This document shows, in pieces, positions 40,381 to 56,929 of a stretch of DNA of 56,929 nt. Positions within the stretch are counted from its first letter, which is position 1. Every line of letters begins with the position of its first letter. Made by a program: the position numbers and the translations under genes. The notes under the pieces were generated by a model. That model saw only the letters and a program-made list of their open reading frames with translations. It had not been told where the DNA came from and ran no database searches. This DNA comes from an uncultured Candidatus Saccharibacteria bacterium (GTDB lineage: Bacteria; Patescibacteriota; Minisyncoccia; Phycocordibacterales; UBA12079), in contig CAYWKC010000002.1 in the NCBI GenBank assembly GCA_964459145.1, positions 1-56,929 on the forward strand, given 5' to 3'.

Positions 40381-40482
40381 CCCGTTAAAAATAGTTTGTT
40401 TCTATACAAACACCTTTTGTTTAATTATTAATTTTTTACTATATATTTTCATTTAACTAATATACTTTATTTTAACAAATTT

Positions 40483-41523: not shown

Positions 41524-41528
41524 AGATA

Positions 41529-42563: not shown

Positions 42564-42570
42564 AATAAAA

Positions 42571-43626
42571 TCAAGCTAAACTCTGAATAATATCCTTTAA
42601 CTTAGCACCTAAAATAGTAGGGGTTAAATTCTGAACAACCTTATTGTAACCATTTTGGGCCAATTTTTCCAGCTTATCAGGGTTATTTTTTAGGAACAAA
42701 ATTGCTTCTGCTAAAGCATTAGGACTTGCTGAAGAAATCAGATATAAATCATTTTCATCAAATAATTCTCTGATAGCAGAAGTATCAGCTGTTATAATTA
42801 CCCTCCTTCTTGCAACACACTCAAAAACCTTGTTGGGGATAACTCTTTTTGTTTTAATTGTATCTCCAAAAATTCCTAGGCAGATATCCGCATTATCAAT
42901 AAAATCTGGTATTTTAAAATAACCAACTTTTCCGAGAAATTCAACATTATTTGTGTTAGAAAAAGAATAGCGATTATCCTCAACTATATTCGGACCAACA
43001 AAAACAAATTTTATATCCAAATGTTTTTTTAACAAAAAAGTCGTTTTAAGAATATATTCAATTCCTTGCAAAGGGATATTCGTTCCATGAAAATGAACAA
43101 CAAACTGATTGTTTTTTGTTTTTTTAGAATTTGGTCTTAAGAAAAAATTATCCACTCCTATAAAAATTCTTCTAAACTTTTCTTTTTTTATTTTAAATTC
43201 TTCAACAAAATATTTTATATGCTCGTTGGTATCCAGCAAGACAACATCTGCTAATTTAGCTGATGTTTTGTCAAGCCACCAATAATATTTAGCTTTAAAA
43301 CTTCCTTGTTTAGTATTTTGTCTATCTAAAACCTCTGATTCGTAGAGTGGAGCAAAACAATCAAAAATTATTTTTTTGTGAGTTAAAAATCTCGCCAATA
43401 TCATTGCTTGAAATCCTGGAAAAGCCACAAATAGTACATCATAATCTTTGCGAATTTTCCAATGTTTTCTTGTGAGATCAAAATATTTTAAAATTCCTTT
43501 TTTATCTGAATGACATTTTATCACTTCTACACCATTTTGTTTTAAACCAGAAATAAGTACTTTATTCCTTGAATATTCTGGGTCATAAATCCCAAAAAAA
43601 CAAATTGTTAAATTTTCTTTAATCAT
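42571..43626 (-). CDS. GT-B glycosyltransferase (GT4-like), paralogue of 40483-41523
   Basis: LTICFFGIYDPEYSRNKVLISGL...LLDTNEHIKYFVEEF...RVIPNKVFECVARRRVIITADTSAIRELF. Confidence 0.75.
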   Translation of the reverse strand: MIKENLTICFFGIYDPEYSRNKVLISGLKQNGVEVIKCHSDKKGILKYFDLTRKHWKIRKDYDVLFVAFPGFQAMILARFLTHKKIIFDCFAPLYESEVLDRQNTKQGSFKAKYYWWLDKTSAKLADVVLLDTNEHIKYFVEEFKIKKEKFRRIFIGVDNFFLRPNSKKTKNNQFVVHFHGTNIPLQGIEYILKTTFLLKKHLDIKFVFVGPNIVEDNRYSFSNTNNVEFLGKVGYFKIPDFIDNADICLGIFGDTIKTKRVIPNKVFECVARRRVIITADTSAIRELFDENDLYLISSASPNALAEAILFLKNNPDKLEKLAQNGYNKVVQNLTPTILGAKLKDIIQSLA

Positions 43627-44357
43627 ATTTTTCCTTTAATAAATTGCAAACCAGAAATTTTACCTAAAAATTGACACCAAGTAGTGCTTTTATCTATTGA
43701 TAAACGAGGTAATTCAAAAATCTGGCCTTTACTGTTTACACACTCTTCTTTAACTGTAAAAGCCAACCTATAACCGGAATCCTTCACTTTATTTGTTACT
43801 TGTTCATTAAAAATGCCCTTGGGATAAGAAAAGTAGTTACAATTGATTTTTAATTCATTTTCTAGAATTTGTTTACTTTCTTTAATTTCTCTAGCCAATT
43901 CTTCCCCAGAAATTTTAGTTAAGTCAGGATGACTCATAGTGTGACAGCCAAACTCTACCAATCCAGAAGCCTGCATTTCTTTTATTTCGCTCCAACTTAA
44001 ATACCCTTTCTTTCCAACCAAATCAATCACCAAAAAAATAATAATGGGAAAATTGTGTTGTTTAATTAAAGGAAATACCACAGAAAAATTGTCTGAATAA
44101 CCGTCATCAAAAGTTAAGATGATTGTTTTATAAGTAAAACCTGTTTGCTCCTTAAGAAACTCTTCTAACTTTCCAAGACTGACAACATTAAAATTTTTCT
44201 TCTTTAAAAAAGCTAACTGTTTTTCAAAGTTTTGAGGAGAAACCGACAAAAACCGCCCATCATTAGAAATTGAGTGATACATCAAAACACCTACTTTTTT
44301 CGATTTGAAAACTAAGGAAAGCAAATATTTTTTAAAACTAATAATATCTTTAGACAT
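43623..44357 (-). CDS. Polysaccharide deacetylase (NodB/CE4 domain)
   Basis: ILTFDDGYSDNF, HTMSHPDL, FSYPKG. Start taken at ATG 44357; 44372 is also possible. Confidence 0.85.
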   Translation of the reverse strand: MSKDIISFKKYLLSLVFKSKKVGVLMYHSISNDGRFLSVSPQNFEKQLAFLKKKNFNVVSLGKLEEFLKEQTGFTYKTIILTFDDGYSDNFSVVFPLIKQHNFPIIIFLVIDLVGKKGYLSWSEIKEMQASGLVEFGCHTMSHPDLTKISGEELAREIKESKQILENELKINCNYFSYPKGIFNEQVTNKVKDSGYRLAFTVKEECVNSKGQIFELPRLSIDKSTTWCQFLGKISGLQFIKGKI

Positions 44358-45411
44358 GATAAGAATTAACAATATTTTTAATTAGATTTTCTAAACTGTG
44401 CCGTTTAACTATTTCTGATCTAAGTTCTATTTGAGGTCTACTTTCTTTAGAAATTTCTATTATCTTCTCGGCTAACTCATGAGCATTATCATTTTTAAGA
44501 ATAAACCTTGCTGGCAGTGTGTTTTCAAAAGTTTTGTTCAAAACAACAACCGGAATGCCACAAGCCATGGATTCTAAAACGACCTTATCCATCCCCCCGG
44601 TTGGGCAAAGATTAATACTTAAACCAGCTTCTTGATATTTTTTTATAATATCTCTATTAGGAACACTCCCGACAAAATTGACGAGAGATGGAATATTTTT
44701 ATCTTCGACAATCTTTTTTAACTTATCTCGATACTTTATATCTTTTTCTGATGTTACCGGACCAACTAAATCAACCTTAAGATTTTCATAGCTATATTGT
44801 CGTACCAACAAGTCCACAGCTTCTATTAGAAGTTGTTGATTTTTTATAGGAGAAATCCGACCAACACACAAAATCTTTAAGAAACCATTATTTGCCAATG
44901 GTTGGACAAGATTATATTGATTAGTATCAATTCCATGACCAACAACCTTTACTTTTTTGTTTTTCAAACCAAAACTTTCAGGTGAAGCTGTAAAGATAAT
45001 ATCCGCCAATTTACTTGCTAAGTATAACTTAAAATTAATTGCCTTGTGTGTATACCACAATCCGATTTTCTTATGCCAGAGACGCCACAAAATACCTCCT
45101 AACACCAAATATTCTGGATTCATATGGACAAACACAGTATCGTAGCTCTTTCTCTCTTGCCAGATGTATTTATAAAAATTAAAAATATATTTTAATTTAC
45201 TTTCAACTTTATGGACTTTTGACTTTTGACTAATATTTTCCTTTCCCAAGGAAAATATTTCCACATTCCTTGGTAAATCACATTCCCCTACTCCTAAAGC
45301 AACCACTGTGACTTTTTCACAGTGTTTAGCGAATTCAGCAATCCACCCATGGGAAAAACCAAGAACATCATCATTTTTATCTACCTTTTGGGTTAATATC
45401 AATATTTTCAT
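44350..45411 (-). CDS. Glycosyltransferase family 4
   Basis: VGRISPIKNQ...GGMDKVVLESMACGIPVV. Confidence 0.8.
   Translation of the reverse strand: MKILILTQKVDKNDDVLGFSHGWIAEFAKHCEKVTVVALGVGECDLPRNVEIFSLGKENISQKSKVHKVESKLKYIFNFYKYIWQERKSYDTVFVHMNPEYLVLGGILWRLWHKKIGLWYTHKAINFKLYLASKLADIIFTASPESFGLKNKKVKVVGHGIDTNQYNLVQPLANNGFLKILCVGRISPIKNQQLLIEAVDLLVRQYSYENLKVDLVGPVTSEKDIKYRDKLKKIVEDKNIPSLVNFVGSVPNRDIIKKYQEAGLSINLCPTGGMDKVVLESMACGIPVVVLNKTFENTLPARFILKNDNAHELAEKIIEISKESRPQIELRSEIVKRHSLENLIKNIVNSYHV
45196..45234 (-). repeat. In-frame copy of the AAAGTC-type motif inside a GT4 gene
   Basis: Minus strand reads ATTAGTCAAAAGTCAAAAGTCCATAAAGTTGAAAGTAAA and encodes ISQKSKVHKVESK. Contains the 12-mer ACTTTATGGACT (plus strand, 45206-45217). 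Confidence 0.6.
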
Positions 45412-45457
45412 ACTTGACTTTTTTTATGGATAATATATTATATTAGTAATCACCAAC

Positions 45458-45494
45458 GGAAAAGACCACCCTACAAGGTACCGTCCTTGTGGGG
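45458..45494 (-). terminator. Terminator-like hairpin spanning the NYN gene stop
   Basis: Minus strand: CCCCACAAGG-ACGGTA-CCTTGTAGGG (9 of 10 bp), then TGGTCTTTTCC. Locally GC-rich in an AT-rich context. Confidence 0.5.
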
Positions 45495-45992
45495 CCTTTT
45501 CTTTTTATATGAAAGCTTCTTATCCAAATTATTCATAAATCTTAAATAAGGTCGAACTATTTTGAACCTCAATAGAGCAGAGAATTTAAAATAATTTGGA
45601 ATCAAAACCACCTCTAATTTGTTCTTCTCTAATAAATATTTTATTAAACAATAAAAATCTCCATCACCACTTACAATAACAGCTTTGTTAAAATTTTCAT
45701 ATTCAATCATTGTCTGTAAAACTAATTCTGCATCAACATTTCCTTTTGTGGTTCCATCTTTATATTCAAGAGTAGGCTTAAAAATACAAATAAAACCGGC
45801 ATCTTGTAAAAACTTATATAAATCATTATTTCCTTCAACATAACCAACAAAAATGAAAGCTTTTTTTACTTGATATTTTTCTTTTAAATATATTTTAAAT
45901 CTAGCAAAATCTAATTTCCAACCCAGAGCTTGAATACTTAAATTCAAATTCTGACTATCTATAAAAGTATAATTGTTTTCCCCTTTTTTCAT
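45471..45992 (-). CDS. NYN-domain (LabA/DUF88-like, PIN-like RNase fold) protein
   Basis: NYTFIDSQNL...KAFIFVGY...GNVDAELVLQ...AVIVSGDGDFYCL. Confidence 0.8.
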   Translation of the reverse strand: MKKGENNYTFIDSQNLNLSIQALGWKLDFARFKIYLKEKYQVKKAFIFVGYVEGNNDLYKFLQDAGFICIFKPTLEYKDGTTKGNVDAELVLQTMIEYENFNKAVIVSGDGDFYCLIKYLLEKNKLEVVLIPNYFKFSALLRFKIVRPYLRFMNNLDKKLSYKKKRPHKDGTL

Positions 45993-45994
45993 AT

Positions 45995-47122
45995 TTAAAT
46001 TTTATCAATAGTCTCAGACCAAGATTTCTGGATAATATCCAAAACTTCCTCTTCAGTTTGGGGAATTTTTTTCAAACAGTCAGTGTAGGCTTTTTGTTGA
46101 AATTCTTCCAAGAGTTCTGGGTGTTGTTGAGCATTTATCATATTTAGAGAAAAACAATTTTGGTCACCCACATCACACAAAAAAGAATTATTGCTACTTA
46201 AAACCTCACCAACAATACCAACTTTAGTAGTCAAAATCGGGCAATGAGAGAAAATTGCCTCAACCAAAGATAAACCATAGCCTTCATAATTAGAAGTGGA
46301 AAGAAATAAATTAGCTGTTTTATAATAAGTAACCGGATTATCTGTCCATTTATTAAAAATAATATTTTCTTCTAAACCCAGTCTTCTGGCTTGCTTTCTC
46401 AAGGAGTTTTTAAAAGAACCTTTTCCAACTATAATTAACCCTGTTTTGGGAAAAATCTCTACAACTCTTACCATAGCATTAATTGCCATTGAAATATTTT
46501 TTTCCTTTTCCAAACGATTTACCATCACCATAATAAATTTAAATTGAGAATATCTTTGTTTTAAGTCAAAATCAGGTTCAGAAACTTGAATAAAAGTGGG
46601 GCTAACAAAAATCGGCAAAATTGTTACTTTTTCTTGTAATTTTTTAGACAAAGATAACTTTATTCTTTTGGAAACAACCCGAAGATGGTCAGCTTTGGGT
46701 AATAAAAATTTAGCCAACCAAGACCGAATTCGGTTAGCCCAAGAATGTTTGATAAAATAAGGACTAAAAATATCCGTATGAATTTGAAATTCCAGCTTAG
46801 CTTTTAATTTTTTGGCCACTTTCCAAGCAATCCACCCAGTTTCATAAGGGTCTTGAGCCGTGACTAAGTCAATATTTTTTAGTTGAACTCCTATTCTCTT
46901 TGCGTCTAAAATATAACGAAATTTATTAAGAGAATTAGTTGGATAAATAAAAACTCTTTCACTTATTTTTAGATTTTTTTTAATTCCGCCATCTTTAAGT
47001 TTTCTATTCAAAACAATAATATGTAAATTATCAGTCACTGTGCCATAATCAACCATCCTTCGCCGAACAGAGCTGTTCTCATCAAATATTTTCTTATCTA
47101 CGCTAATCATCAAAATATTCAT
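45995..47122 (-). CDS. Glycosyltransferase family 4
   Basis: VNRLEKEKN...STSNYEGYGLSLVEAIFSHCPILTTKVG. Confidence 0.8.
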   Translation of the reverse strand: MNILMISVDKKIFDENSSVRRRMVDYGTVTDNLHIIVLNRKLKDGGIKKNLKISERVFIYPTNSLNKFRYILDAKRIGVQLKNIDLVTAQDPYETGWIAWKVAKKLKAKLEFQIHTDIFSPYFIKHSWANRIRSWLAKFLLPKADHLRVVSKRIKLSLSKKLQEKVTILPIFVSPTFIQVSEPDFDLKQRYSQFKFIMVMVNRLEKEKNISMAINAMVRVVEIFPKTGLIIVGKGSFKNSLRKQARRLGLEENIIFNKWTDNPVTYYKTANLFLSTSNYEGYGLSLVEAIFSHCPILTTKVGIVGEVLSSNNSFLCDVGDQNCFSLNMINAQQHPELLEEFQQKAYTDCLKKIPQTEEEVLDIIQKSWSETIDKI

Positions 47123-47146
47123 ACTATTTTCATTATATCAAAAATT

Positions 47147-48334
47147 TTATTTTTTATATTTTTCCAAAGTTTCCTTTAGAGAATTTGCTACAATGAATCC
47201 CCCATCTTCTTCAAACTCTTTCTTGCTCTCCATTAATTCTGTATAAAGAATACCCTCTCTCAATAATTTTTCTAATTTATCTAAAGTATTTTGAATAGAA
47301 AATTGTTTTGATTTCTCGTAAGCGTTTTGAACAAGAGTTTGCCTAAAATTATCATTTTGAAAAATTTTTATAACAGCATTTTTAATGGCTTCTTTGTCAT
47401 TGGGTTCAACTAAAATCCCTTCTTGATTATTTTCAATTAATTCCGGTAACGAGCCCACTTTAGTAGCTAATACGGGCAAACCAAGCGCCATCGCTTCCAC
47501 TGTATCAAATGAAAAACTTTCCCAATTAGTGTTAAGAACAAAGATATCAGCTAGTTGTTTTTGTTTTAATAATTTATCTCGACTTAACTGCCCAACTAAA
47601 ATAACCTTATCCTCCAAATTAAGTTTTTCAATTGTTTGTTCTAATTCTTCTTTTTGCGGACCACTGCCAACTATTACCAACTTTGCTTCTGGAATTTCTT
47701 GTAAAATATCCGGTATTGTTTCAATTAATACTTTAAAACCTTTCCATGGCACCAACCTCCCTACCGACAACAACACCTTACTTTCGACTTTATGGACTCT
47801 TGGCTCGTTTATTTTTATCCCATTATAAATAACTTCAATTTTTTTAGATTCAATTCCCCAATTTAAGATAATACTCTTAAAATAGTGACTTGGAACAACA
47901 ACCTTTTCTGCCCGCTTAGCCACCCAAGTTTGAATTTTTTTGAAAAACTTAACAACAAAACCATAATTATTTTTTAAAGAAAAGATGTCCAAATTATCTT
48001 TAACTCTAAATCTTTGCACTCCTTGTTCCCAAGCGTAATCCCCAGCAATTCTAATAAAAAATCTCTTCTTTAAAAAAATATTAGCCAGCATGGTTGGCAA
48101 ACCAACACTCACGGGATCTTGAGCATAAATTACATCACAGCCCTTAATTCTCTTGATTATCTTAAAAAAATAAAACAAATGACGAATAATCTTGGGTAAA
48201 TGTCTAACTTCACCAAAAGACAACACCTCTACATCAATCCCCCGTTGGGGTAATTCATCAAAAAGCAGTTTTGAATAAGTGGCTGGACCACCAATATCAG
48301 GAGGATATATTCCAGTTGTAATTAAAATCTTCAT
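47147..48334 (-). CDS. Glycosyltransferase family 4
   Basis: PPDIGGPATY...VGRLVPWKGF...NTNWESFSFDTVEAMALGLPVLATKVGSLPE. Confidence 0.85.
   Translation of the reverse strand: MKILITTGIYPPDIGGPATYSKLLFDELPQRGIDVEVLSFGEVRHLPKIIRHLFYFFKIIKRIKGCDVIYAQDPVSVGLPTMLANIFLKKRFFIRIAGDYAWEQGVQRFRVKDNLDIFSLKNNYGFVVKFFKKIQTWVAKRAEKVVVPSHYFKSIILNWGIESKKIEVIYNGIKINEPRVHKVESKVLLSVGRLVPWKGFKVLIETIPDILQEIPEAKLVIVGSGPQKEELEQTIEKLNLEDKVILVGQLSRDKLLKQKQLADIFVLNTNWESFSFDTVEAMALGLPVLATKVGSLPELIENNQEGILVEPNDKEAIKNAVIKIFQNDNFRQTLVQNAYEKSKQFSIQNTLDKLEKLLREGILYTELMESKKEFEEDGGFIVANSLKETLEKYKK
47777..47803 (-). repeat. In-frame copy of the AAAGTC-type motif inside a GT4 gene
   Basis: Minus strand reads CCAAGAGTCCATAAAGTCGAAAGTAAG and encodes PRVHKVESK, just before VGRL. 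The 12-mer ACTTTATGGACT lies at 47787-47798. Confidence 0.6.
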
Positions 48335-49470
48335 ATCTTATGTGAAAAAAGTTTGTTCATAGCTTTAGCAATAACATCCCAATCGTATTTCTGGCGAACC
48401 ATTTTATAAGCATTGATAATTATTCTTTCTCTTAATAATTTATCTTCAAGAAATAATTTAACTTGCTCAGCGATAGATTCAGGGTCTTTAGTTCTACAAA
48501 AAAGACCCGTTTCTTTATCCTTCAAAAAATCTGGGATTCCACCAACTGGTGTAGCAATAACAGGAGTTTTCGTTGCCATCGCTTCCAAAAAAGAATTGCC
48601 CAAACCTTCAGAAAGAGACGGGCGAACAAAAATATCCGAAATTTTGAGATACTTGGGTAATTCTTCTTGATTAACAAAGCCCAAAAAATTAACCCGATTT
48701 TCTAACCCTCTTTCTTTTGAAATTTTTACCAATTTTTCCCTGTCTTCACCCTCTCCTAACAAAAGTAATTTAATATGAGATGGTAAATAAATTAAAGATT
48801 TAATCAAATCTTCTAAGCCATTTTTATAAGTCAACCGCCCAGTATGAATTAAAAAATTGTCCTTCTCTTGTTTTCCTAATTGATGTTTAAGTTCTTTTTG
48901 ATGCTTATCTGAAAATAATTGATTAAAATTTTTAACATCAACCCCATTAGGAATAATATCAATCGGACAAATTGCTCCCATTCTTTTTGCCCAACCAGCT
49001 AAATAGGAGCTAATACACTGGATTTTGTCAGCCCTTTTGAAAATATTTTTAAACTGTCCTTTAACAAACCTTGCCCGCTTTTGTATATGTTTGGGGCTAT
49101 CTCCTTCCTGTAAAGTCAAAATAAAAGGAATCTGTGGGTAACCCCGCTTGAATTTCGAAGCAGCTAAACCAGCATAACTTGCCATGATTGACCAAATTAA
49201 ATCATACTTATGTTGTTTCTTTAATTTTATGGCTATGCGATAACCATAAAATGCTAAGAGTAATTTATCAATCATTGGATTACCAATGCCCATCCGAAAA
49301 ACTTCAACGTTTCCAATTTTTTCTTGTTGAGGAAGTCGTTTGTCCATTTTCGCCGTCAAGAGGTGAAATTCTAAATCTGGGTTTCTCTCCGTAATTTCCT
49401 TAACAGCTACTTCTGCCCCACCGACAAAAGGGTGATAGGCCGTTGAAAATATAAGGATTTTTCTCTTCAT
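48331..49470 (-). CDS. Glycosyltransferase family 4
   Basis: HPFVGGAEVA...TGRLTYKNG...RPSLSEGLGNSFLEAMATKTPVIATPVGGIPD. Confidence 0.85.
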   Translation of the reverse strand: MKRKILIFSTAYHPFVGGAEVAVKEITERNPDLEFHLLTAKMDKRLPQQEKIGNVEVFRMGIGNPMIDKLLLAFYGYRIAIKLKKQHKYDLIWSIMASYAGLAASKFKRGYPQIPFILTLQEGDSPKHIQKRARFVKGQFKNIFKRADKIQCISSYLAGWAKRMGAICPIDIIPNGVDVKNFNQLFSDKHQKELKHQLGKQEKDNFLIHTGRLTYKNGLEDLIKSLIYLPSHIKLLLLGEGEDREKLVKISKERGLENRVNFLGFVNQEELPKYLKISDIFVRPSLSEGLGNSFLEAMATKTPVIATPVGGIPDFLKDKETGLFCRTKDPESIAEQVKLFLEDKLLRERIIINAYKMVRQKYDWDVIAKAMNKLFSHKI

Positions 49471-49512
49471 ATCACTTATTGTAGCAGAAAAGACAAAGTT
49501 TATATAGAAAAA

Positions 49513-51006
49513 TTATTGATCTAGTTTACTGGCTAAAACAATTCCTGCTACAGCCAAAAGAACAACTCCTACCAATAAAACAGTCCATTTGTTAAACAGT
49601 GGTTTTTTTGATTTCAGCTTTAAAGGTTGCTCCTGGAGATTTTGAGATGAAGAGATATCTTGAATTTCCCAATCTTCATTGGAAACAATTTTCTCTGTGT
49701 CTTCTTCTACTTTTTCAGAAGAATAATCCTCTGGTTCTGTAATTTTTTGAATGGAAGCTACTTGATTGGTAGGAAGAATAACTATTTTTTCTTGAAGAGG
49801 AATATTCTGAGTTGTTTCTTCTTTCTTTTTATAAACAAAAGCGACGCTTCCATTCGGATATAGTAAACTAATTTGATTGGTTTGATTTGAAAAAAGACCT
49901 GTTGTTTTAGATGAAAGTTTTAAATATTTTTTTGGCAAAATAATAGTATCTCTTGGAAAAGTAAAATAATTATTATCTACCTTTAATCGCCACCAAGATA
50001 AGTTTAATTCATAAGAAGAAGGGTTGTGTAATTCAATGAATTGTTTATTGGGAAGAGAAAATTCCACGTTAGAAATTGTAATATTCGAGGGAAGAACATT
50101 AATTTTTAAGCGGTCACTCCCCACATATTTACCAGAAATAACTTGTAAAACCACCATATATTCTCCTGGGTATTGATAAGCATATAAAACTTTTTGTCCT
50201 TGAGCTTTTCCTCCGTCACCAAAAGTCCACTGATACTTTTCGTTTTCAAGAGGTTCATTCTTCAATCCACAGGAAATCCCTTCAAAAAGAAAATCAGCCC
50301 CTGTAATAGGCTTATCTTGGGGCAAAATAATAGTCCCAAAAATCTGCGGTTTTATTTTATAGGGAGTTACCACTGATGAAGGAGTCGTTTGAGATTGAAT
50401 TTCGCTTTGTGGCTCTTCAGGAGAATCTTCCTCTGAATCATTCTCTTCACCACCATTCTCGGGTTGAGAACTTAAATAATTGGCTTCTCCTGGAGTAGGA
50501 GCGGAAGCCAACCAAACCCCATTAATTTTTTGAAGAGAATTACCATCACCATTGGCTCCCCAGTCTGATAAATAACTGACAGTATCAATGTCAATTAAAT
50601 CAGCATTTCTAATAACAAAGGCTTCCCCTGTGTTAGAAAGTGAAAAAGCAGAAGCAAAAACTAGACTTGAAAAATTTGGATAATCTATCTTAAATTTTTC
50701 AAAATTATCAACAATTAACGCATAAGCCCCGCTTGGTAATAAAACAGAACCTCCTTCTGGAAGTGATTCAATTTTGTGATTGGTCTTAGCTTCAAAAAAT
50801 TTCCACCCTAACAAATTAATTTCTTCTGTTGCCATATTATGAATTTCAACCCATTCTCTTCCGCCATCACTTCCTTCGGCTAAGTCATACATTATTTCCG
50901 TTATTTCAATTTGCGCAAAGATGATAAAGGGAGAGAAAAACAAAACATAAAAAATGGCTGTCAAAGACAGCCATTTTTTATGTTTCTCCTCATCATTTAT
51001 TTTCAT
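49513..51006 (-). CDS. Membrane-anchored surface protein: lamin-tail-like domain, acidic linker, PKD-like domain, second lamin-tail-like domain, C-terminal TM
   Basis: - N-terminal hydrophobic segment WLSLTAIFYVLFFSPFIIFA.
- ITEIMYD...REWVEIHN...LLGWKF, and FIELHNPSSYELNLSWWRL (LTD-like).
- YQWTFGDG...YAYQYPGEYMVVLQV (PKD-like).
- C-terminal WTVLLVGVVLLAVAGIVLA. Confidence 0.7.
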   Translation of the reverse strand: MKINDEEKHKKWLSLTAIFYVLFFSPFIIFAQIEITEIMYDLAEGSDGGREWVEIHNMATEEINLLGWKFFEAKTNHKIESLPEGGSVLLPSGAYALIVDNFEKFKIDYPNFSSLVFASAFSLSNTGEAFVIRNADLIDIDTVSYLSDWGANGDGNSLQKINGVWLASAPTPGEANYLSSQPENGGEENDSEEDSPEEPQSEIQSQTTPSSVVTPYKIKPQIFGTIILPQDKPITGADFLFEGISCGLKNEPLENEKYQWTFGDGGKAQGQKVLYAYQYPGEYMVVLQVISGKYVGSDRLKINVLPSNITISNVEFSLPNKQFIELHNPSSYELNLSWWRLKVDNNYFTFPRDTIILPKKYLKLSSKTTGLFSNQTNQISLLYPNGSVAFVYKKKEETTQNIPLQEKIVILPTNQVASIQKITEPEDYSSEKVEEDTEKIVSNEDWEIQDISSSQNLQEQPLKLKSKKPLFNKWTVLLVGVVLLAVAGIVLASKLDQ

Positions 51007-52717
51007 CTAGTTTTTTAACGTAAAGCATTTTTTCTAAAGTATCTTTAGATATTTCTTTTACATTTTTCTCCTCATTTTTTTTATTCTCGTGTTTTCTCTG
51101 AACGACAGACACTGGTTGAACTTCTAACCCAACGGTCTGTTTATTAAAAGATTTTTTTAATTCTTCTCTGCCATTATTTTGGACATTTTGAATGGCGTTA
51201 GATAAAGCTTTTCTTAATTCAATTCTTTTATCTTGATTATTTTCTAAATTGTTTTCCTTTTTTAAAGTAACATTATCAATTTTTTTATAATCTTTCCTGT
51301 TCCGTAAATCGTTTAAACTCATCCGAGGAGTTTTTTTAGAATAATTTCTTTGAAACGATTGTGGTTGTAGTCTAATTTTTTCACTTCCACTAAATTGTTT
51401 AGCGGGCTGTTTATTTTGCACAATATCTGGTGTATACCAATCAATTATATTTTTCTCTACCTCGTCTCTTAATTGAGCAAATTGTTTTTGTGAAGATTCT
51501 ATTATTTCTTGCTTAAAAGACATTGTTGGTTTAGCAATAGGAGGTAAAGTTCTCGCAGAAAAAGGGGTCGACCCAATACCATCTATCATTAATTTTAAAT
51601 AAACCTGAGCAAAATCTAAATTAACAATATCATCGGCTGTAAAGTCCGGCGAAAATTCTTTTTCAAAAATCTCCGCATCATAAGAACCTAAACGAAAAAT
51701 AATCATCGTCCCAACGTTACCAAATACAGCGGCTCTCACTTCGTCCTCCATTTGTTCTATATATTGATGAGCAATAGTAAGATTTAGTTTATATTTCCTC
51801 GCTTCCGATAAAATATTCGTAAAGGATTCATTAGCGAAGGACTGAAACTCATCCACGAAGAAATAAAAATTAGGCAATTTATTTAGTTCGTCTTGAGAGA
51901 CATCCGCTCGAGACATTGCTCCCAAATATATTTTGGTAATTAGCATACTTCCTAAAAGATTAGCAGCATCCTCCCCAATCTGACCTTTAGATAAATTAAT
52001 TATCAGAATTTTTTTCTTGTCCATTATTTCCCTAACATCAAAAGAAGATTTTTCTTGTCCAATAATATTTCTCACAATAGGATTGGAAACGAATTGCCCG
52101 ACCTTATTTTGAATAGCTGCTCCAGCTTCCTGCATATATCTTTCACCATATTTTGCAAATTCATCCATCCAAAAAGATTTAACTGAGGCATCACTAACAT
52201 TATCTACTACTTTCTTACGATAATTTTTATCAGAGAGCATTCTATTAACCCCCAACAAAGTTGCTCCTGGAAACTCCAATAAAGCTAATAAAATATTATT
52301 CAAGATGTATTCCATTCGAGCCGACCAAGCATCCACCCAGATTTTCTTAAAAGCACTCATCAAACCACTAGCCACTAAATGTCTTTTATCTTCCCCCACA
52401 TCTTCCATTACATTAAATGAGATAGGATTATTTAAATCAAAGGGCGCAAAATAGATAACATCATCAATTCTATGTTCTGGAACATAATCTAATAACAAGT
52501 CAGCTGTTTTGCCATGAGGATCCATAAAAGCTATTCCATTTCCGTTTTTGATATCTTGCACCGCCATATTTTCAAGCATAGTTGACTTCCCCATACCAGT
52601 TTTCCCAATGGTATAAACATGCCTCGTCCGATCTGAGGCCTTAATACCAAAACGCACTCGCTTATTCCTTCGATCAGTTTCAGCAAAGTATGTAATTGGA
52701 TTTTTTTCTTCCATCAT
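50993..52717 (-). CDS. VirD4/TraD/TrwB-like (type IV coupling-protein-like) P-loop ATPase without TM segments; K/E/N-rich tail
   Basis: - Walker A GKTGMGKST and Walker B FYFFVDEFQSF.
- LTIAHQY, and VGTMIIFRLG.
- No hydrophobic N-terminus.
- The last 150 aa or so are low complexity.
- 14-nt overlap with the downstream LTD gene. Confidence 0.65.
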   Translation of the reverse strand: MMEEKNPITYFAETDRRNKRVRFGIKASDRTRHVYTIGKTGMGKSTMLENMAVQDIKNGNGIAFMDPHGKTADLLLDYVPEHRIDDVIYFAPFDLNNPISFNVMEDVGEDKRHLVASGLMSAFKKIWVDAWSARMEYILNNILLALLEFPGATLLGVNRMLSDKNYRKKVVDNVSDASVKSFWMDEFAKYGERYMQEAGAAIQNKVGQFVSNPIVRNIIGQEKSSFDVREIMDKKKILIINLSKGQIGEDAANLLGSMLITKIYLGAMSRADVSQDELNKLPNFYFFVDEFQSFANESFTNILSEARKYKLNLTIAHQYIEQMEDEVRAAVFGNVGTMIIFRLGSYDAEIFEKEFSPDFTADDIVNLDFAQVYLKLMIDGIGSTPFSARTLPPIAKPTMSFKQEIIESSQKQFAQLRDEVEKNIIDWYTPDIVQNKQPAKQFSGSEKIRLQPQSFQRNYSKKTPRMSLNDLRNRKDYKKIDNVTLKKENNLENNQDKRIELRKALSNAIQNVQNNGREELKKSFNKQTVGLEVQPVSVVQRKHENKKNEEKNVKEISKDTLEKMLYVKKLDENK

Positions 52718-52736
52718 CTTTATTATAGTTTATTTT

Positions 52737-53933
52737 TTAATCTGTTAGAAGAGCCCCCGTTGTATATCTATTGCTGGCAGACCATAACATCCAACTATCT
52801 AATCCCGCATCATACACGGCCTGAATCTGGGCACGAACTTCTTTTGCATTATAATCAGCCCCTAAATCAAAATCCTGAAGCCACGGCCTTAATTTATTAG
52901 GGTCAAGACCTGCATTTTTAGCTTTAGCCACAGCTTTATCCATTGAATATTTAACTACTTCGTAAGGATGAGAAGCAGGATTGGCATAACCAATAAAACT
53001 AGTTGGATAATGTGAGGGATAAACCATCGGGGCCACAAAATCAAAATATGGCAGAGTATATTCCAAAATTTGACCAATGTTTAAATCGTCATTGTTTGTT
53101 GTTACCATTCCAAATAAATCAGCTGATAAAACTACCCCCGTATCGCCTAATTCTGCATCTACATAGATAAAAAATTCTCTTAATATCTTCGCTTTCCCTG
53201 TGTCTACATCGGCAAAAACCCTTTCTTCACTAAAAGGATAATAAATTTGAAACATATCTCCATCTGAAGGAAAACGAATATAATCAAAATTAATTTCATC
53301 AAAACCAAGATTGTATGAATATCTAGCTAAATCAATAACATAATTCCAAACCTCAATTGAACCAGCATCCAACCAGCTAATCCCTTTGCGATCTTTCCAA
53401 ATATCTCCTCCTTCCTTTTTCTTAACCGCCAAATCTGGACGCTGTTGAACAAAATGGGGGTCTTGAAAAACAGAAATTCTACCAATCACATAAATATTTT
53501 TACTATGTAAGTATTCCAAAAACTCTCTCGCATCGGGGATTCTATTTTCTGAAGCCCCATATTTTGACAAATTTTCATCTTGAACCTCAAAGGCAATTTT
53601 CCCTGTGTAATCTTTGATGTCTATCACAACCGAGTTGAGTTCTGTGTTGTCAATAAGATTTACTAAATTATTTCTAATATTTTTTGTTCCCGCTACCCAG
53701 CTAGTCATATAAATAGCTTTGACTTGTGGGGGTAATGATACATGAGTAGCTACTTCAACTTCCTCCTCCATAGCAGTGACTTTCATTACCAATGCCTCAT
53801 TCAAGAAACTAATTGTTGAAACTGAATGGTAAACAGACAAAAAGGAAAAACCAAAAAAACAGAGGAAGCACCCCCCGACTATTTTTTTCAAAATTTTTAA
53901 TTTATTATTCTCCTTTAATTGAACAATCGCCAT
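52737..53933 (-). CDS. Putative glycoside hydrolase (DUF4015/GHL-type TIM barrel), signal-anchored
   Basis: N-terminal anchor GGCFLCFFGFSFLSV. AIYMTSW, VVIDIKD, GFDEINFDYIRFPSDG and PMVYPSHY are typical of this family. Confidence 0.55.
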   Translation of the reverse strand: MAIVQLKENNKLKILKKIVGGCFLCFFGFSFLSVYHSVSTISFLNEALVMKVTAMEEEVEVATHVSLPPQVKAIYMTSWVAGTKNIRNNLVNLIDNTELNSVVIDIKDYTGKIAFEVQDENLSKYGASENRIPDAREFLEYLHSKNIYVIGRISVFQDPHFVQQRPDLAVKKKEGGDIWKDRKGISWLDAGSIEVWNYVIDLARYSYNLGFDEINFDYIRFPSDGDMFQIYYPFSEERVFADVDTGKAKILREFFIYVDAELGDTGVVLSADLFGMVTTNNDDLNIGQILEYTLPYFDFVAPMVYPSHYPTSFIGYANPASHPYEVVKYSMDKAVAKAKNAGLDPNKLRPWLQDFDLGADYNAKEVRAQIQAVYDAGLDSWMLWSASNRYTTGALLTD

Positions 53934-54126
53934 TTTCTATATAGATATTATCTTTTAAATCTTTGTCTTGCTTGCTTGTCAATAAACTCATTTTTCGAGA
54001 AAAATAAAGCGACTGGATAAGGATTATTAAACCCAATAAACTATAAATCAAATTTTCCCAAGAACTAGGAAACCCCAAAAAAGGCATTATTATTAATAAA
54101 AAACCGAGAAATGCTATTTTTTTCAT
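53905..54126 (-). CDS. Small membrane protein (2 TM), hypothetical
   Basis: KIAFLGFLLIIMPFLGFP and LIYSLLGLIILIQSLYF. Fills the rsmI-GHL gap on the same strand. Confidence 0.45.
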   Translation of the reverse strand: MKKIAFLGFLLIIMPFLGFPSSWENLIYSLLGLIILIQSLYFSRKMSLLTSKQDKDLKDNIYIENGDCSIKGE

Positions 54127-54141
54127 TAGAGATATTATACT

Positions 54142-54837
54142 TTATTTTTTCTGAATAACAAAAACAAATTCTCCTTTTATTTTTTCAGGATTTTTATCAA
54201 AAAAATATAAAATTTCTGAAATAGTTCCTGAAATAATTTCTTCATAAATTTTAGTTAGCTCTCTAGCAATGGTTATTTTTCTTTTCTCTTGACTATTTTC
54301 TTCTAATTGGTTTTTTAGTGCTTCTAACGTTTTTAAAACTCGGTGAGGTGATTCATAAAAAACTACCGTTCTCTCAGAATTAACAATTTCTTTCAACAAA
54401 GTTTGCTTTCCCTTTTTGTGTGGGAGAAAACCTAGAAACAAAAACTGATCAGCTGAGAAACCACTAATTGATAAAGCCGTAACAAGAGCACTTGCCCCTG
54501 GGATAGAAATAATTTTGACAGATTTATCAAATTTTTTTCTTACCTCTGCTACCAATTGAAAACCTGGATCGGAAATAGTTGGAGTGCCTGCATCTGAAAC
54601 TAAAGCTAAATCTTTGTCTTGCCCTAATAAATCTAAAACTTTATCCACTTTATATTTTCCACTAAAAGAATGATAAGAAATTGTGGGAGTTTCAATCTTA
54701 TGCTTATCTAAAAGTTTTCTAGTAACCCTAGTATCCTCACACAATACAAAATCTACTTCTTTAAGAATTCTTAAAGCCCTGAGTGTGACATCCTCCAAAT
54801 TACCTATCGGAGTGGCGACTATATATAAATTAGACAT
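54142..54837 (-). CDS. rsmI: 16S rRNA (cytidine1402-2'-O)-methyltransferase
   Basis: LYIVATPIGNLEDVTLRAL..L..VDFVLCEDTR, SDAGTPTISDPG, IPGASA. Confidence 0.9.
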   Translation of the reverse strand: MSNLYIVATPIGNLEDVTLRALRILKEVDFVLCEDTRVTRKLLDKHKIETPTISYHSFSGKYKVDKVLDLLGQDKDLALVSDAGTPTISDPGFQLVAEVRKKFDKSVKIISIPGASALVTALSISGFSADQFLFLGFLPHKKGKQTLLKEIVNSERTVVFYESPHRVLKTLEALKNQLEENSQEKRKITIARELTKIYEEIISGTISEILYFFDKNPEKIKGEFVFVIQKK

Positions 54838-54880
54838 AATATTAAATTACTTCACAACAATCTTTGGTTCACACTGTTAG

Positions 54881-54952
54881 AGCCGAAGGTGAGAATTGAA
54901 CTCACGACCTACGCGTTACGAGTGCGTTGCTCTACCACTGAGCTACCCCGGC
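54881..54952 (-). tRNA. tRNA-Thr (anticodon CGT)
   Basis: Folded by hand: GCCGGGG / TA / GCTC-AGTGGTA-GAGC / A / ACGCA-CT[CGT]AA-CGCGT / T-arm GTGAG-TTCAATT-CTCAC / CTTCGGC-T. Two G.U pairs in the acceptor stem and one A.C mismatch in the anticodon stem. No encoded CCA. Confidence 0.8.
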
Positions 54953-54959
54953 CTACCTG

Positions 54960-55032
54960 AGCCCGAGGGCGGGTTTGAACCGCCGACTTACGCCTTACCA
55001 TGGCGTTACTCTACCAACTGAGTTACTCGGGC
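54960..55032 (-). tRNA. tRNA-Thr (anticodon GGT)
   Basis: GCCCGAG / TA / ACTC-AGTTGGTA-GAGT / A / ACGCC-AT[GGT]AA-GGCGT / AAGTC / GGCGG-TTCAAAC-CCGCC / CTCGGGC-T. Perfect cloverleaf. No CCA. Confidence 0.9.
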
Positions 55033-55070
55033 CTAATAAATTATATCTTATTAGATTTTAGAGTTTTTTG

Positions 55071-55096
55071 CAAAACAAAAAACCCTCTCGGGTTTA
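55071..55096 (-). terminator. Rho-independent terminator after tRNA-Asp
   Basis: Minus strand: AAACCC-GAGA-GGGTTT followed by TTTGTTTTG. Confidence 0.6.
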
Positions 55097-55112
55097 TGTT
55101 TTTCTAAAAAAG

Positions 55113-55185
55113 CGGACCCGACCGGATTTGAACCGGCGATCTATCGCGTGACAGGCGATTGTGTTAACCCCTACACCACGGGTCC
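55113..55185 (-). tRNA. tRNA-Asp (anticodon GTC)
   Basis: GGACCCG / TG / GTGT-AGGGGTTA-ACAC / A / ATCGC-CT[GTC]AC-GCGAT / AGATC / GCCGG-TTCAAAT-CCGGT / CGGGTCC-G. No CCA. Confidence 0.9.
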
Positions 55186-55880
55186 ATTTTTTGATTTCTT
55201 ATTTTTAAAAAATTCTTCAAATCGTTTTTTCTTTCTTAATAAAAGCAAATTCGTTTTAAGATTATCATACATTAAATGATATAACAATAATGAGTCGTTA
55301 ATGCTAAACTTCAAACAATATGCATTGCTATTTTTCCTTTTGTAAATTCCACCCCCCTTTATTCCTCTTTTCTGCAAACTTTTACATAAATCTTTAAGAA
55401 ATTCATTTGATGCAGAGGTAAAAGCTGTTTGTATAGTATAGGTATTTTTAAATCGTTTCCTCTGGATAAACCCAGTCCACACATTCCCGTCTCCATCAAA
55501 ATAACCTCGGATAAACTTTCCGAAATACTTTTTAGGAATATTAGGAAGTTTTAGTCGATAAGTTTTTCTTTCTTTAACGCCTAATTTCGCCAAATCCTCA
55601 CAAATTTCATTGCTCCCTATCTGTAATCGATAAAATGTACTTTTATCTTTCTTGTGAATTCTTTTGCTTATTTTATGTTCAGAGTCAAGCACAAGACGAA
55701 TACTATATAACAGATCTTTATCTTTTATTTGAATGGCAAAATAACTAGCCCCTCTTTTCCCAGTGAATACATATCCATCCGCCATAAAAAACCTAAAACA
55801 TAGGCCATTTCACTTGACCATTTCTTAAAAAATTTTTTATTAACTTGTTTAAAGATTGGCATCCTATCATTATACTTCAT
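55171..55880 (-). pseudogene. Two-motif LAGLIDADG homing endonuclease; first motif split by a 1-nt frameshift in a T6 run. The tracked ORF 55171-55785 is the downstream part.
   Basis: An upstream frame from ATG 55880 reads MKYNDRMPIFKQVNKKFFKKWSSEMAYVLGF. After the T6 run (plus-strand A6, 55786-55791) the tracked frame continues MADGYVFTGKRG. One extra T would join them as AYVLGFFMADGYVF (motif 1). Motif 2 is FIRGYFDGDGNVW. The stop lies 15 nt inside tRNA-Asp. Confidence 0.65.
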
Positions 55881-55922
55881 GACAGGACATGACACCAACT
55901 AATATTGTTGATACAAATTTTG

Positions 55923-55996
55923 TGTCGATGGTTGGAGTTGAACCAACGATCTGGCGCGTATGAGACGCCCGCTTTAACCAACTAAGCTACATCGAC
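55923..55996 (-). tRNA. tRNA with anticodon CAT, elongator type (Met, or Ile2 if lysidine-modified)
   Basis: GTCGATG / TA / GCTT-AGTTGGTTA-AAGC / G / GGCGT-CT[CAT]AC-GCGCC / AGATC / GTTGG-TTCAACT-CCAAC / CATCGAC-A. The G1-C72 pair argues against an initiator. Confidence 0.85.
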
Positions 55997-56677
55997 GTTA
56001 TTTAATTCTTTTGTTGCTTTTAAAAGACCTAATATTTTATACTTTAGCTCTGAACTTTTTCTTACTTTTAAAGATAAAACTCCGTAATAATTTTCATAAT
56101 TCTCGTACACTTTTTTTTGCTTCATTTTTAACAATACAGGATTCCCAAACTGTTCAATAGGTAATTCTAACAAATTAGACCAAAATTTCAAAACTTTATT
56201 AATGCGAGGCTTATGCATCTCATTTATAAAGATCCTAGGCATAAATTCTTCTTTTTTTATACCGAAGACAACATTAAACCACTTATACATAAACAAAATT
56301 GCTTCTTGATCCGAATTAACAAAAGCTAAGGAACTTTTATCTGATTTTACTCCCTCACCCCAATATAAACCGAGACCCGTCATAAACAAATCTCTTTTTG
56401 ACATTTTTTTAATAACTTCAACCCCTGATTTTTCATAAAATTTAATCTTTTCTAACTTTTTTTTGCGATTCATATTTGCCCCGATCATTCTTCCGTTATG
56501 ACCAGCTTCAATAGCGTTTCTCTTCAAAATCTCTTTTTGTTTTTTTGTTAAAGTAATCTCCTGGCACCATGAACTAACAGACCCTTTTGAGACATTCAAT
56601 TTTTTAACAATTGTATTAATACTCCAACCTTCCCTTCTTAATTGTTGCGCTTTTATTTTTTCTTGAAACTTAGCCAT
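55982..56677 (-). CDS. HTH + LAGLIDADG-like (single-motif) endonuclease-type protein
   Basis: N-terminal REGWSINTIVKKLNVSKGSVSSW (HTH-like). LFMTGLGLYWGEGVKSDKSSLAFVNSD resembles a LAGLIDADG helix-plus-strand block. The stop lies 15 nt inside tRNA-CAT. Confidence 0.5.
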   Translation of the reverse strand: MAKFQEKIKAQQLRREGWSINTIVKKLNVSKGSVSSWCQEITLTKKQKEILKRNAIEAGHNGRMIGANMNRKKKLEKIKFYEKSGVEVIKKMSKRDLFMTGLGLYWGEGVKSDKSSLAFVNSDQEAILFMYKWFNVVFGIKKEEFMPRIFINEMHKPRINKVLKFWSNLLELPIEQFGNPVLLKMKQKKVYENYENYYGVLSLKVRKSSELKYKILGLLKATKELNNVDVA

Positions 56678-56790
56678 TTCACTATATATTATAATATATG
56701 GTAAGTCTTATTACAAGGATAAAAACTTGTCTTTTCTAATTCATCTGTTAATATCTTAAATAGTTAAATTGTCCTTATCTGTTGTTACCA

Positions 56791-56823
56791 AACACCGCCA
56801 GCGGTTTAGCTGGCGGTGTTTTT
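56791..56823 (-). terminator. Strong hairpin downstream of tRNA-fMet
   Basis: AACACCGCCAGC-GGTTTA-GCTGGCGGTGTT (perfect 12-bp stem). T/A runs on both sides, so it could act bidirectionally. Confidence 0.65.
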
Positions 56824-56828
56824 ACTTG

Positions 56829-56899
56829 TTGCGGGAGCCTGATTCGAACAGACAACTGGAGGTTATGAGCCTCCCGAGTTACCCTTACTCCATCCCGCG
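56829..56899 (-). tRNA. Initiator tRNA-fMet (anticodon CAT)
   Basis: CGCGGGA / TG / GAGT-AAGGGTA-ACTC / G / GGAGG-CT[CAT]AA-CCTCC / AGTT / GTCTG-TTCGAAT-CAGGC / TCCCGCA-A. The C1xA72 mismatch and CGCGGG...CCCGCA acceptor match bacterial initiators. Confidence 0.85.
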
Positions 56900-56929
56900 A
56901 TATATATTAAATTTTATAAAAACTTTAAC

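Follow-up and report, generated by a model that had tools for sequence, protein, structure and literature searches.

The closest known case to the arrangement described here is SegB of phage T4, a free-standing GIY-YIG homing endonuclease encoded in the T4 cluster of transfer RNA (tRNA) genes (PMC2330249). The DNA analysed here, called the window, is the whole stretch of 56,929 nucleotides (nt) of contig CAYWKC010000002.1 from an uncultured Candidatus Saccharibacteria bacterium (GCA_964459145.1), and its minus strand carries two open reading frames (ORFs), ORF1 and ORF2, each of which runs into a tRNA gene. Like these ORFs, SegB is a free-standing gene lodged between tRNA genes and missing from clusters of relatives that are homologous in other respects. 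The site that it recognizes incorporates the T-psi-C loop, a conserved motif of tRNAs, and the gene is inherited together with flanking tRNA genes (PMC2330249). Unlike them, it belongs to the GIY-YIG family, resides in a phage and cleaves at tRNA 3' ends, and it is one gene, whereas ORF1 and ORF2 belong to families made up of tRNA-identity-specific lineages. The text consulted of that report describes neither an overlap of ORF and tRNA nor a position in a tRNA leader.

Public names of homologues place both families in the phylum Patescibacteria (candidate phyla radiation, CPR), from which LAGLIDADG genes are known as insertions in ribosomal RNA (rRNA) genes (PMC11809585, PMC7143001). Those genes share with ours the phylum, the superfamily of ORF2 and the targeting of highly conserved RNA genes. 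They sit inside the rRNA and need to be removed from it, whereas here the tRNAs are uninterrupted and the gene would lie in a 5' leader that RNase P can remove. A term search of the text of PMC11270868, which treats rRNA-gene insertions of the CPR, returned 0 mentions of tRNA, and the part of PMC7143001 consulted mentions in passing two protein genes inserted between tRNA genes. The literature covered yielded no account of endonuclease genes residing in bacterial tRNA leaders, of lineages tied to particular tRNAs or of the ORF1 family; supplementary files and subscription journals lay outside that coverage, so an earlier description is possible.

Among solved LAGLIDADG enzymes, 2dch_X ('putative homing endonuclease'), I-AniI and I-DmoI have two motifs with invariant acidic residues, as the ORF2 family does. 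The solved archaeal and organellar enzymes are intron-encoded, unlike ORF1 and ORF2, and ORF1 differs from them also in its added helix-turn-helix (HTH) domain, its single motif and a strand–helix order for which Foldseek gave no match. Transcripts in which coding RNA lies directly upstream of a tRNA and is set free when RNase P cuts at tRNA nt 1, as we propose here, are known from host genes that have their own stops; here the genes are patchily distributed and of endonuclease type, and the stop often lies inside the tRNA. In mitochondrial transcripts, tRNAs serve as such 'punctuation'. A bacterial example is Escherichia coli secG–leuU, an mRNA–tRNA co-transcript separated by RNase P (PMC2241853).

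The two ORFs of the window and the tRNA genes that they enter are as follows.

55982–56677, minus strand: ORF1, 231 amino acids (aa) by frame translation; its TAG stop (55982–55984) is nt 13–15 of tRNA-Met
55922–55996, minus strand: tRNA-Met (CAT), called by ARAGORN; Rfam score 69.1 bits
55725–55862, minus strand: 5' piece of ORF2, from the conserved start ATG at 55862 (MPIFKQVNKK...) through half of motif 1 (..AYVLGFL) to a stop at 55725–55727
55786–55791, minus strand: T6 run at which the frame breaks inside LAGLIDADG motif 1, from comparison with homologues
55171–55785, minus strand: 3' piece of ORF2, 204 aa, recognized by Pfam and profiles; its TAG stop (55171–55173) is nt 13–15 of tRNA-Asp
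55112–55185, minus strand: tRNA-Asp (GTC), called by ARAGORN; Rfam score 67.1 bits

We called tRNA genes with ARAGORN and with Infernal/Rfam, which agree on five minus-strand genes and both place the 5' ends of tRNA-Met and tRNA-Asp at 55996 and 55185. These boundaries leave the overlaps in place, and the sequence and both programs bear out the original prediction that each ORF reads exactly 15 nt into the next tRNA, in a frame that begins at tRNA nt 1: ORF1 ends ...AAC GTC GAT GTA GCT TAG inside tRNA-Met and ORF2 ends ...GGA CCC GTG GTG TAG inside tRNA-Asp. Both tRNA genes are also uninterrupted, as had been claimed, with the full Rfam tRNA model matched over positions 1–71 and no insertion. 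The ORFs are free-standing, lying outside intact host tRNA genes and encoded by neither an intron nor an intein. According to the whole-genome tRNA list, tRNA-Met(CAT) is the sole elongator-type CAT tRNA of the assembly and tRNA-Asp(GTC) is present as a single copy.

Relatives of both ORFs occupy the same position in other genomes. We searched 61 relatives and an even draw of 300 genomes of the phylum (301 genomes counted); only the best-scoring 19–30 loci per search were inspected, and kin among them are not independent. Among the 61 relatives, the ORF2 family was present in 22 genomes, and all 22 loci matched by tblastn lay directly 5' of a same-strand tRNA, with stops at −4 to +44 relative to tRNA nt 1. 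Of the 22 tRNAs, 19 were called by ARAGORN, and the remaining three are tRNA-Asp genes interrupted by an insertion, which in two cases is a confirmed group I intron. The ORF1 family was present in 28 of the relatives, and 12 of its 19 best loci had a same-strand tRNA just downstream (stops −48 to +15), while two loci lacked a tRNA. In the phylum sample, 27 of 301 genomes had the ORF2 family, with a same-strand tRNA at 23 of 24 strong loci (stops −34 to +44). The ORF1 family occurred in 65 of the 301, reached nine copies in a single genome and had a same-strand tRNA at 28 of 29 loci (stops −40 to +23, twelve of them at +10). For background, just six other ORFs of at least 81 aa in the window genome end within −20 to +10 of its 33 distinct tRNAs. 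The family-wide placement directly 5' of tRNAs is far beyond chance.

In protein trees, members group by the tRNA that they precede and not by host family. Support from the Shimodaira–Hasegawa approximate likelihood-ratio test (SH-aLRT) was 99 for the Met-associated clade of the ORF1 family, 96 for Gln, 100 for Ile(TAT), 99 for Gly(TCC), 99 for Trp and 98 for Val. Within the ORF2 family, a Leu-associated clade (100) stands apart from the Asp group (91) and from one Cys-associated gene, and Phe-associated members were seen in the phylum sample.

Comparison of the tRNA cluster among relatives with and without the ORFs, which had been proposed as a check, uncovered both empty and filled sites. 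The fMet-Met-Asp-Thr-Thr array is kept in relatives, with spacers that vary from 4 to 1116 nt. One relative, G008, has an ORF1 homologue (74% identity) yet just 49 nt between tRNA-Met and tRNA-Asp, and another of the same genus, G002, has an ORF2 homologue (69%) yet just 103 nt from tRNA-fMet to tRNA-Met. The Met–Asp spacer measures 49–56 nt where empty (G008 and G049) versus 717–1116 nt where filled, and the fMet–Met spacer 36–119 nt versus 758–831 nt. Each ORF is therefore polymorphic for presence and absence at the same site in related genomes. Even among genomes of one genus, the spacers were too diverged for the insertion junctions to be mapped exactly.

Other signs of mobility come from damaged and discordant copies. 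Remnants of ~60 aa lie directly before tRNA-Asp in two loci (L053 and L055), and several ORF1-type copies in the phylum sample have internal stops. With the identity of RsmI between genomes as our yardstick of divergence, RsmI of genus g4 is 66–68% identical to that of the window; at the same locus in this genus, the ORF2 homologue of G016 groups with genus g1 (69% identical to the window's) and that of G010 with genus g5 (54%). The window genome and G008 share 74% identity in ORF1 and 68% in RsmI. The evidence from lineages and empty sites fits a history of gain, decay and exchange. The original prediction had spoken of free-standing homing endonucleases that have colonised tRNA 5' flanks: the position and the mobility-like behaviour stand, and the identity as endonucleases is solid for ORF2 and at the level of motifs for ORF1.

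Judged by its motifs and profile matches, the ORF2 family is a bona fide two-domain LAGLIDADG enzyme family. ORF2 exceeds the Pfam cut-offs for both LAGLIDADG_3 (PF14528; 2.9e-11, 43.9 bits, cut-off 22.5) and LAGLIDADG_1 (PF00961; 7e-6, 27.3 bits, cut-off 23.1), and it matches phrog_4645 'endonuclease' (4e-29). Against solved enzymes, the family profile matched 2dch_X (3.7e-12), I-AniI (1.6e-6) and I-DmoI (2.9e-3), and also I-HjeMI. D29/G30 and D124-G125-D126-G127 are invariant among 20 family members, and the window copy reads ..MADGY.. and ..GYFDGDGN.. at the two motifs.

The window copy itself is broken. It had been described as one two-motif LAGLIDADG ORF starting 42 nt after tRNA-CAT, which does not hold: the frame stops at 55725–55727 and a second frame opens at 55785, and no intact ORF2 frame was found in the window genome. 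An alternative start ATG at 55880 lies in the same frame and is also stopped at 55725–55727. Intact homologues begin MPIYKKVNK, and all 11 of the closest homologues are uninterrupted, reading AYVLGFFMADGY or a close variant at motif 1 (GFFMADG, GFFAADG or GFLFADG in the closest intact ones). Because these homologues read uninterrupted through motif 1, ORF2 of the window lacks one T, and seven T's at the T6 run would restore GFFMADG. Logan contigs of two further runs (X2 record 15 and X3 record 22) are identical at the T6 site, with no gaps; since they match, the frame break belongs to the population's own DNA and did not arise in this assembly. A further run, X1, may be that of the source sample. 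We prefer to see in the break a deletion that inactivated the gene recently, as is usual at some stage for genes of this kind. The heptamer T_TTT_TTA is present and would permit slippage, yet programmed −1 frameshifting is unlikely, because the local fold was no better than that of shuffled sequences (100 nt, z −0.54) and the homologues are uninterrupted.

ORF1 is of a different build, with an HTH domain at its N-terminus and a C-terminal domain (C-domain) that carries a LAGLIDADG-like motif, LYWGEGxK...NSDP. The label 'HTH-LAGLIDADG-like' given to it at first is upheld for the HTH; the LAGLIDADG part is backed by neither Pfam nor a fold search and weakly by profiles. Profile searches for an endonuclease fold succeeded for ORF2 and reached the level of a motif for ORF1. 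The HTH_23 match of ORF1 itself (22.1 bits) falls just below the Pfam cut-off of 24.6, which many homologues exceed. The family is large, with 5320 representatives at E ≤ 0.001, whose public names are 'hypothetical' or 'helix-turn-helix domain-containing'; NCBIfam and PHROGs gave ORF1 no meaningful match, and the ESM Atlas gave none that was usable for the C-domain. The only nuclease matched by profiles of the ORF1 family was I-DmoI, through its domain 2 (E 3.3e-4 with 18 sequences, 1.7e-3 with 18 C-domains only and 1.6e-3 with 102 sequences), in an alignment that covers the motif LYWGEGxK...NSDP. Across the family, Y105 and G109 are invariant and E108 is nearly so. A reading of the C-domain as a PD-(D/E)XK nuclease was dropped, since by our reading of the alignment the order of conserved residues does not fit.

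Single-motif LAGLIDADG enzymes pair through the motif helix. A homodimer model of the ORF1 C-domain scored 0.63, against 0.01 for the best control, a mark that was reached by 20 of 30 proteins solved as one-chain pairs and by 1 of 23 solved as single chains. Between runs, 81% or more of the contacts recurred, and the predicted local distance difference test (pLDDT) was at least 82. The predicted interface is formed by C-domain residues 4–23, that is, the motif helix, and is symmetric, with residue 18 facing residue 18; a dimer through the motif helix with an acidic residue at the helix end is thus what the model predicts for ORF1. On balance, ORF1 probably acts in the manner of a dimeric LAGLIDADG-type nuclease to which an HTH has been joined, although we do not file it as a member of that family. 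The top-scoring database relatives of the C-domain (P0121–P0128) are 396–576 aa long and have two HTH-plus-domain units per chain, being either real tandem fusions or two adjacent genes called as one; they are reminiscent, by analogy, of the dimer-to-monomer route of LAGLIDADG enzymes.

Transcription of the locus is suggested by three sites.

56688–56716, minus strand: promoter-like site TTGTAA-17-TATAAT before ORF1, with 10/12 matches the best promoter-like site
55869–55874, minus strand: TATAAT box, 6 nt before the conserved start codon of ORF2
55080–55095, minus strand: intrinsic terminator-like hairpin and T-run after tRNA-Asp, from the terminator scan

Since the −10 box of the ORF1 site ends 10 nt upstream of the ATG and a Shine-Dalgarno sequence is lacking, the ORF1 mRNA would be near-leaderless. 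The same TATAAT-N6-start layout as at ORF2 is found in L035 and L037. Empty alleles of relatives have a TGnTATATT box 9–21 nt before tRNA-Met nt 1, filled alleles have a like box 10 nt before the ORF start, and we infer that the box in front of the ORF and the box of the empty-allele tRNA are the same promoter. Weak intragenic hairpins aside, the scan detected nothing terminator-like from ORF1 through tRNA-Met and ORF2 to tRNA-Asp, and the terminator behind tRNA-Asp likely marks the end of an ORF1–tRNA-Met–ORF2–tRNA-Asp transcription unit. The genome encodes RNase P RNA (105.8 bits) and transfer-messenger RNA (tmRNA; 126.2 bits).

We think it likely that genes of homing-endonuclease type reside here in the 5' leader of a tRNA, are carried along on its transcript and are severed from it by RNase P. 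Lodged downstream of the tRNA's own promoter and directly before nt 1, with no terminator and essentially no spacer, such an ORF would on transcription form a long 5' leader on an essential tRNA, and its near-leaderless message would double as that leader. The host would tolerate the gene because RNase P removes any leader at tRNA nt 1, a role that would correspond to that of self-splicing for intron-borne endonuclease genes. For spread, the enzyme would cut an endonuclease-free allele in or close to the tRNA gene. A filled allele would then be the template for mending the break, and the conserved tRNA genes nearby would provide the homology arms. ORF2 belongs to the tRNA-Asp lineage and ORF1 to the tRNA-Met lineage, and ORF1 is predicted to pair through the LAGLIDADG-like helix of its C-domain.

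Several observations weigh against occupation of the leader by endonuclease genes. Both ORFs contain promoter-like sites, 168 and 132 nt ahead of the tRNAs, which could drive the tRNAs separately; the promoter scan returned 12 sites versus 7.1 expected and discriminates poorly in A+T-rich DNA. Four of the 19 best ORF1-family loci among the relatives are divergent from a tRNA 68–97 nt away, and one is convergent, 2 nt from a tRNA 3' end. Ordinary genes of the window genome also come close to tRNAs: a 122-aa ORF (C1:117629–117997) reads 10 nt into tRNA-Gly(CCC), a ClpB-like gene ends at −8 of tRNA-Tyr and a DnaX-like gene ends at −11 of tRNA-Gln. Within family f1, ORF2 identities rank like RsmI identities, and by this comparison vertical descent combined with losses could account for much of the spread.

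The nature of ORF1 raises a further set of objections. Pfam gives no recognition of the C-domain in the window's ORF1, and one of 18 C-domains of the family reaches LAGLIDADG_3, at E 0.0086. Alignment of the two families with hhalign was not significant (probability 0.2 and 0.1, with 18 or 102 sequences), although the motifs fell in register despite that score. Foldseek searches of the Protein Data Bank with two ORF1 models (the full protein, pLDDT 87.5; the C-domain, pLDDT 89.3 and predicted template-modelling score 0.83) gave no LAGLIDADG chain among the matches listed; the best had E 0.02–0.03 (IspF and MotB), and nothing was found at E ≤ 0.001. The LAGLIDADG fold is alpha-beta-beta-alpha-beta-beta-alpha. 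The predicted order of the C-domain is helix-strand-helix-strand-helix-strand-helix-strand-helix, unlike that classic fold.

One alternative reading concerns the overlap itself. Counting both families, both samples and the window's two ORFs, the stop lay inside the tRNA in 55 of the 87 members with a same-strand tRNA and at or before nt 1 in 32, often just 1–5 nt away. Offsets ranged overall from −48 to +44; +10, +15, +23, +36 and +44 were common, with +10 the commonest. The original prediction pointed out the shared register of the two ORFs, which against this spread turns out to be incidental. Among the 33 tRNAs of the window genome, a frame-2 stop ending at +10 (the U8-A9-G10 TAG) occurs in 19 and a frame-1 stop ending at +15 in 13. 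The +15 register is not meaningful, because conserved tRNA nucleotides offer in-frame stops, and two ORFs sharing it is unremarkable, with roughly a 1 in 3 chance of a common frame. The ORFs run up to the tRNA and then use the first in-frame stop that its conserved nucleotides supply, whether TAG at nt 8–10 or 13–15 or TAA/TAG in the D-loop. The meaningful feature is a coding sequence that reaches the tRNA without a spacer, and the 15-nt overlap is a by-product. It need not be an adaptation, because about a third of members keep their own stop and the ordinary 122-aa ORF overlaps a tRNA too. That ORF looks membrane-anchored and coiled-coil, and its stop is the TAG at nt 8–10 of tRNA-Gly(CCC).

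If the overlap were an adaptation all the same, the RNase P cut would leave a non-stop mRNA, the built-in brake of the original prediction; tmRNA tagging would follow and a toxic endonuclease would be kept scarce. The 55 stops inside tRNAs agree with such a brake, as do the presence of both RNase P RNA and tmRNA and the lack of either terminator or spacer between ORF and tRNA. The register is not conserved, however, and stops range from −48 to +44; the other 32 members keep a stop at or before nt 1; the residues coded within the overlap are unconserved tails; conserved tRNA nucleotides alone give in-frame stops at +10 or +15; and the 122-aa ORF, which is no endonuclease, does likewise in the same genome. 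We consider the brake possible, if rather unlikely, and the data do not require it.

A second alternative asks where the ORF2 cassette came from and rests on an element upstream of it. In 11 of 12 Asp-clade genes, GGTTAG-N9-CTGTCA is followed by ~5 nt and then TATAAT, and its letters and spacing equal the stretch of tRNA-Asp from the D-loop to the anticodon loop, where shuffled sequences averaged 0.03 matches. The one failure is the window copy.

55880–55899, minus strand: degenerate copy of the ORF2-family upstream element, from pattern comparison with relatives

Local alignment, used to look for a relic tRNA in front of the ORF2 homologues, was confounded by the adjacent tRNA-Met, and this pattern count took its place. 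The element may have been left behind by an old insertion into a tRNA-Asp gene, or it may be a target-like operator. For the latter, I-TevI, which reportedly represses itself through an operator resembling its homing site, would be the model, purely by analogy: the tRNA-Asp-like element would be bound and not cut.

Anticodon loops of relatives do hold group I introns, in tRNA-Asp (L040:1019–1277 and L042:2120–2343) and in tRNA-Thr (L112:2252–2511), with Rfam scores of 51–82 bits, and the intron-bearing tRNAs lie directly behind endonuclease-type genes. Since L040 and L042 carry such introns, the same tRNA-Asp has also been invaded in the classic way. Insertions under the Rfam threshold were seen in tRNA-fMet of L008 and in tRNA-Asp of L045 and L068.

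The cassette might accordingly have begun as an intron-like insertion near the tRNA-Asp anticodon loop, with the element as the relic 5' half and the downstream tRNA-Asp as a replacement copy carried or retained with the cassette. The loop letters and spacing shared by 11 of 12 loci favour this origin, together with the introns (L040, L042) and insertions (L045, L068) in tRNA-Asp genes right behind the ORFs and a partial duplicate of the tRNA-fMet 5' end upstream of tRNA-fMet in the window genome. Just the loop-like blocks match, however, the acceptor and stem parts being absent, and the element is conserved among cassettes and not per host tRNA; it is therefore an inherited, selected part, be it promoter, operator or target mimic. 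We see this origin as improbable, to about the same degree as the brake.

Elsewhere in the ORF1 family, in the Gln and Ile lineages (L011, L013, L017 and L020), a −10-like box is flanked by an inverted repeat, GAACA...~30 nt...TGTTC, that ends exactly at the start codon. This repeat may be an operator of the HTH domain or an RNA hairpin.

Somewhat less likely again is that the proteins have been domesticated as DNA- or RNA-binding factors kept by 'their' tRNA, for example as promoter repressors or as maturase-like helpers in processing the precursor. LAGLIDADG proteins are known to turn into maturases, ORF1 has an HTH, several ORF1-family promoters lie inside the GAACA...TGTTC repeats, a conserved tRNA-Asp-like element marks the ORF2-family promoter, and the protein trees make the association with a given tRNA old and stable. 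Proteins in host service would not be expected to occur as patchily as these, in 22 and 28 of 61 relatives and 27 and 65 of 301 genomes, or to be missing from same-genus genomes that have the same tRNAs. The remnants and broken copies, the window's ORF2 included, tell against domestication as well, as do the invariant catalytic acidic residues and the gene-free genomes that carry the same tRNA with a short leader.

Chance or artefact, meaning spurious ORFs in A+T-rich spacers, mis-set tRNA ends or a frameshift from assembly error, could draw on the redundant assembly (C10 = C2:38409–56929, 99.7%), the end of the window at an N gap and the frequency of abutting genes in a compact genome, and it is refuted for practical purposes by the agreement of two programs on the tRNA ends, the hundreds to thousands of conserved homologues of both proteins and the contigs from other runs that reproduce the region, T6 run too.

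Around the two ORFs, the minus-strand gene order given in the original prediction, with its hairpin, terminator and rsmI, was confirmed by ARAGORN, Rfam/Infernal, Pfam and the terminator scan. The remaining features are these.

56828–56899, minus strand: initiator-type tRNA-Met (CAT), the array's first gene; ARAGORN, Rfam tRNA 53.5 bits, C1-A72 mismatch in the alignment
56790–56821, minus strand: G+C-rich, terminator-like 13-bp hairpin after tRNA-fMet; the scan called it on the plus strand
54959–55032, minus strand: tRNA-Thr (GGT), ARAGORN and Rfam
54880–54952, minus strand: tRNA-Thr (CGT), ARAGORN and Rfam, 6–7 nt from tRNA-Thr(GGT)
54142–54837, minus strand: rsmI, a flanking housekeeping gene (Pfam TP_methylase, 9e-30)

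A hairpin and T-run occur at the same place after tRNA-fMet in relatives (L006, L035–L038, L041 and L043). In the window, neither tRNA-Thr gene has an insert in front of it, the spacers there measuring 79 and 6 nt; among relatives, the same spacers reach 984 and 311 nt (L006, L007, L035, L037, L041 and L053), and other inserts probably occupy those leaders too.

The window genome comprises 578 kb in 23 contigs with 30–36% G+C. Positions 1848–20362 of contig C10 repeat window positions 38409–56929 at 99.7% identity, and the last 6.9 kb, which includes both ORFs, are identical (100%); the assembly holds a redundant or strain-variant contig. The window terminates at a run of 100 N's. Beyond its end (C10:20305–20438 and C11:1–55), a 59-nt direct repeat upstream of tRNA-fMet copies the A+T-rich promoter region and the first 25 nt of tRNA-fMet, followed by ~45 nt with a perfect palindrome that re-uses letters of the anticodon arm. 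Repeat and palindrome may be the scar of a past break or insertion at tRNA-fMet, or an assembly problem at the contig end.

Two further loci of the window genome resemble nuclease genes. An 81-aa ORF (C14:12053–12298) ends 1 nt before tRNA-Pro(TGG) and has an N-terminus that is GIY-YIG-like by eye; it may be a third nuclease type parked at a tRNA. A weak LAGLIDADG-like match (C13:1703–2026, equivalent to L005:1501–1824; E 5.6e-4 to ORF2, 165-aa open frame) lies ~360 nt downstream of a 16S rRNA 3' end.

A fuller version of leader occupation joins all of these parts, and as a whole we offer it tentatively, as something that falls short of probable. The tRNA leader would be a dedicated endonuclease niche of Patescibacteria, used by two tRNA-tracking families, of which the unannotated ORF1 type (>5000 representatives) would pair through a LAGLIDADG-like helix on a non-classic scaffold. 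Near-leaderless ORFs would lie between promoter and tRNA nt 1, with no terminator and mostly no stop of their own; RNase P would free the tRNA, a stop inside the tRNA would yield a non-stop mRNA that limits expression, and the tRNA-Asp-like element would be a target mimic for self-repression.

If occupation of the leader is true, homing-endonuclease genes would have a third harmless lifestyle near essential targets, beside self-splicing introns and inteins. It would explain why spacers in the tRNA arrays of such tiny genomes range from 4 to >1000 nt, and it would give a probable role to a large protein family now called 'hypothetical' or 'helix-turn-helix domain-containing'. With one lineage per tRNA, the families would supply many natural enzyme–target pairs for the evolution of DNA specificity, and one could test directly how translation, RNase P and tmRNA act together on a single transcript. 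Throughout the phylum, the position immediately 5' of a tRNA looks like a safe haven for selfish-looking nuclease genes.

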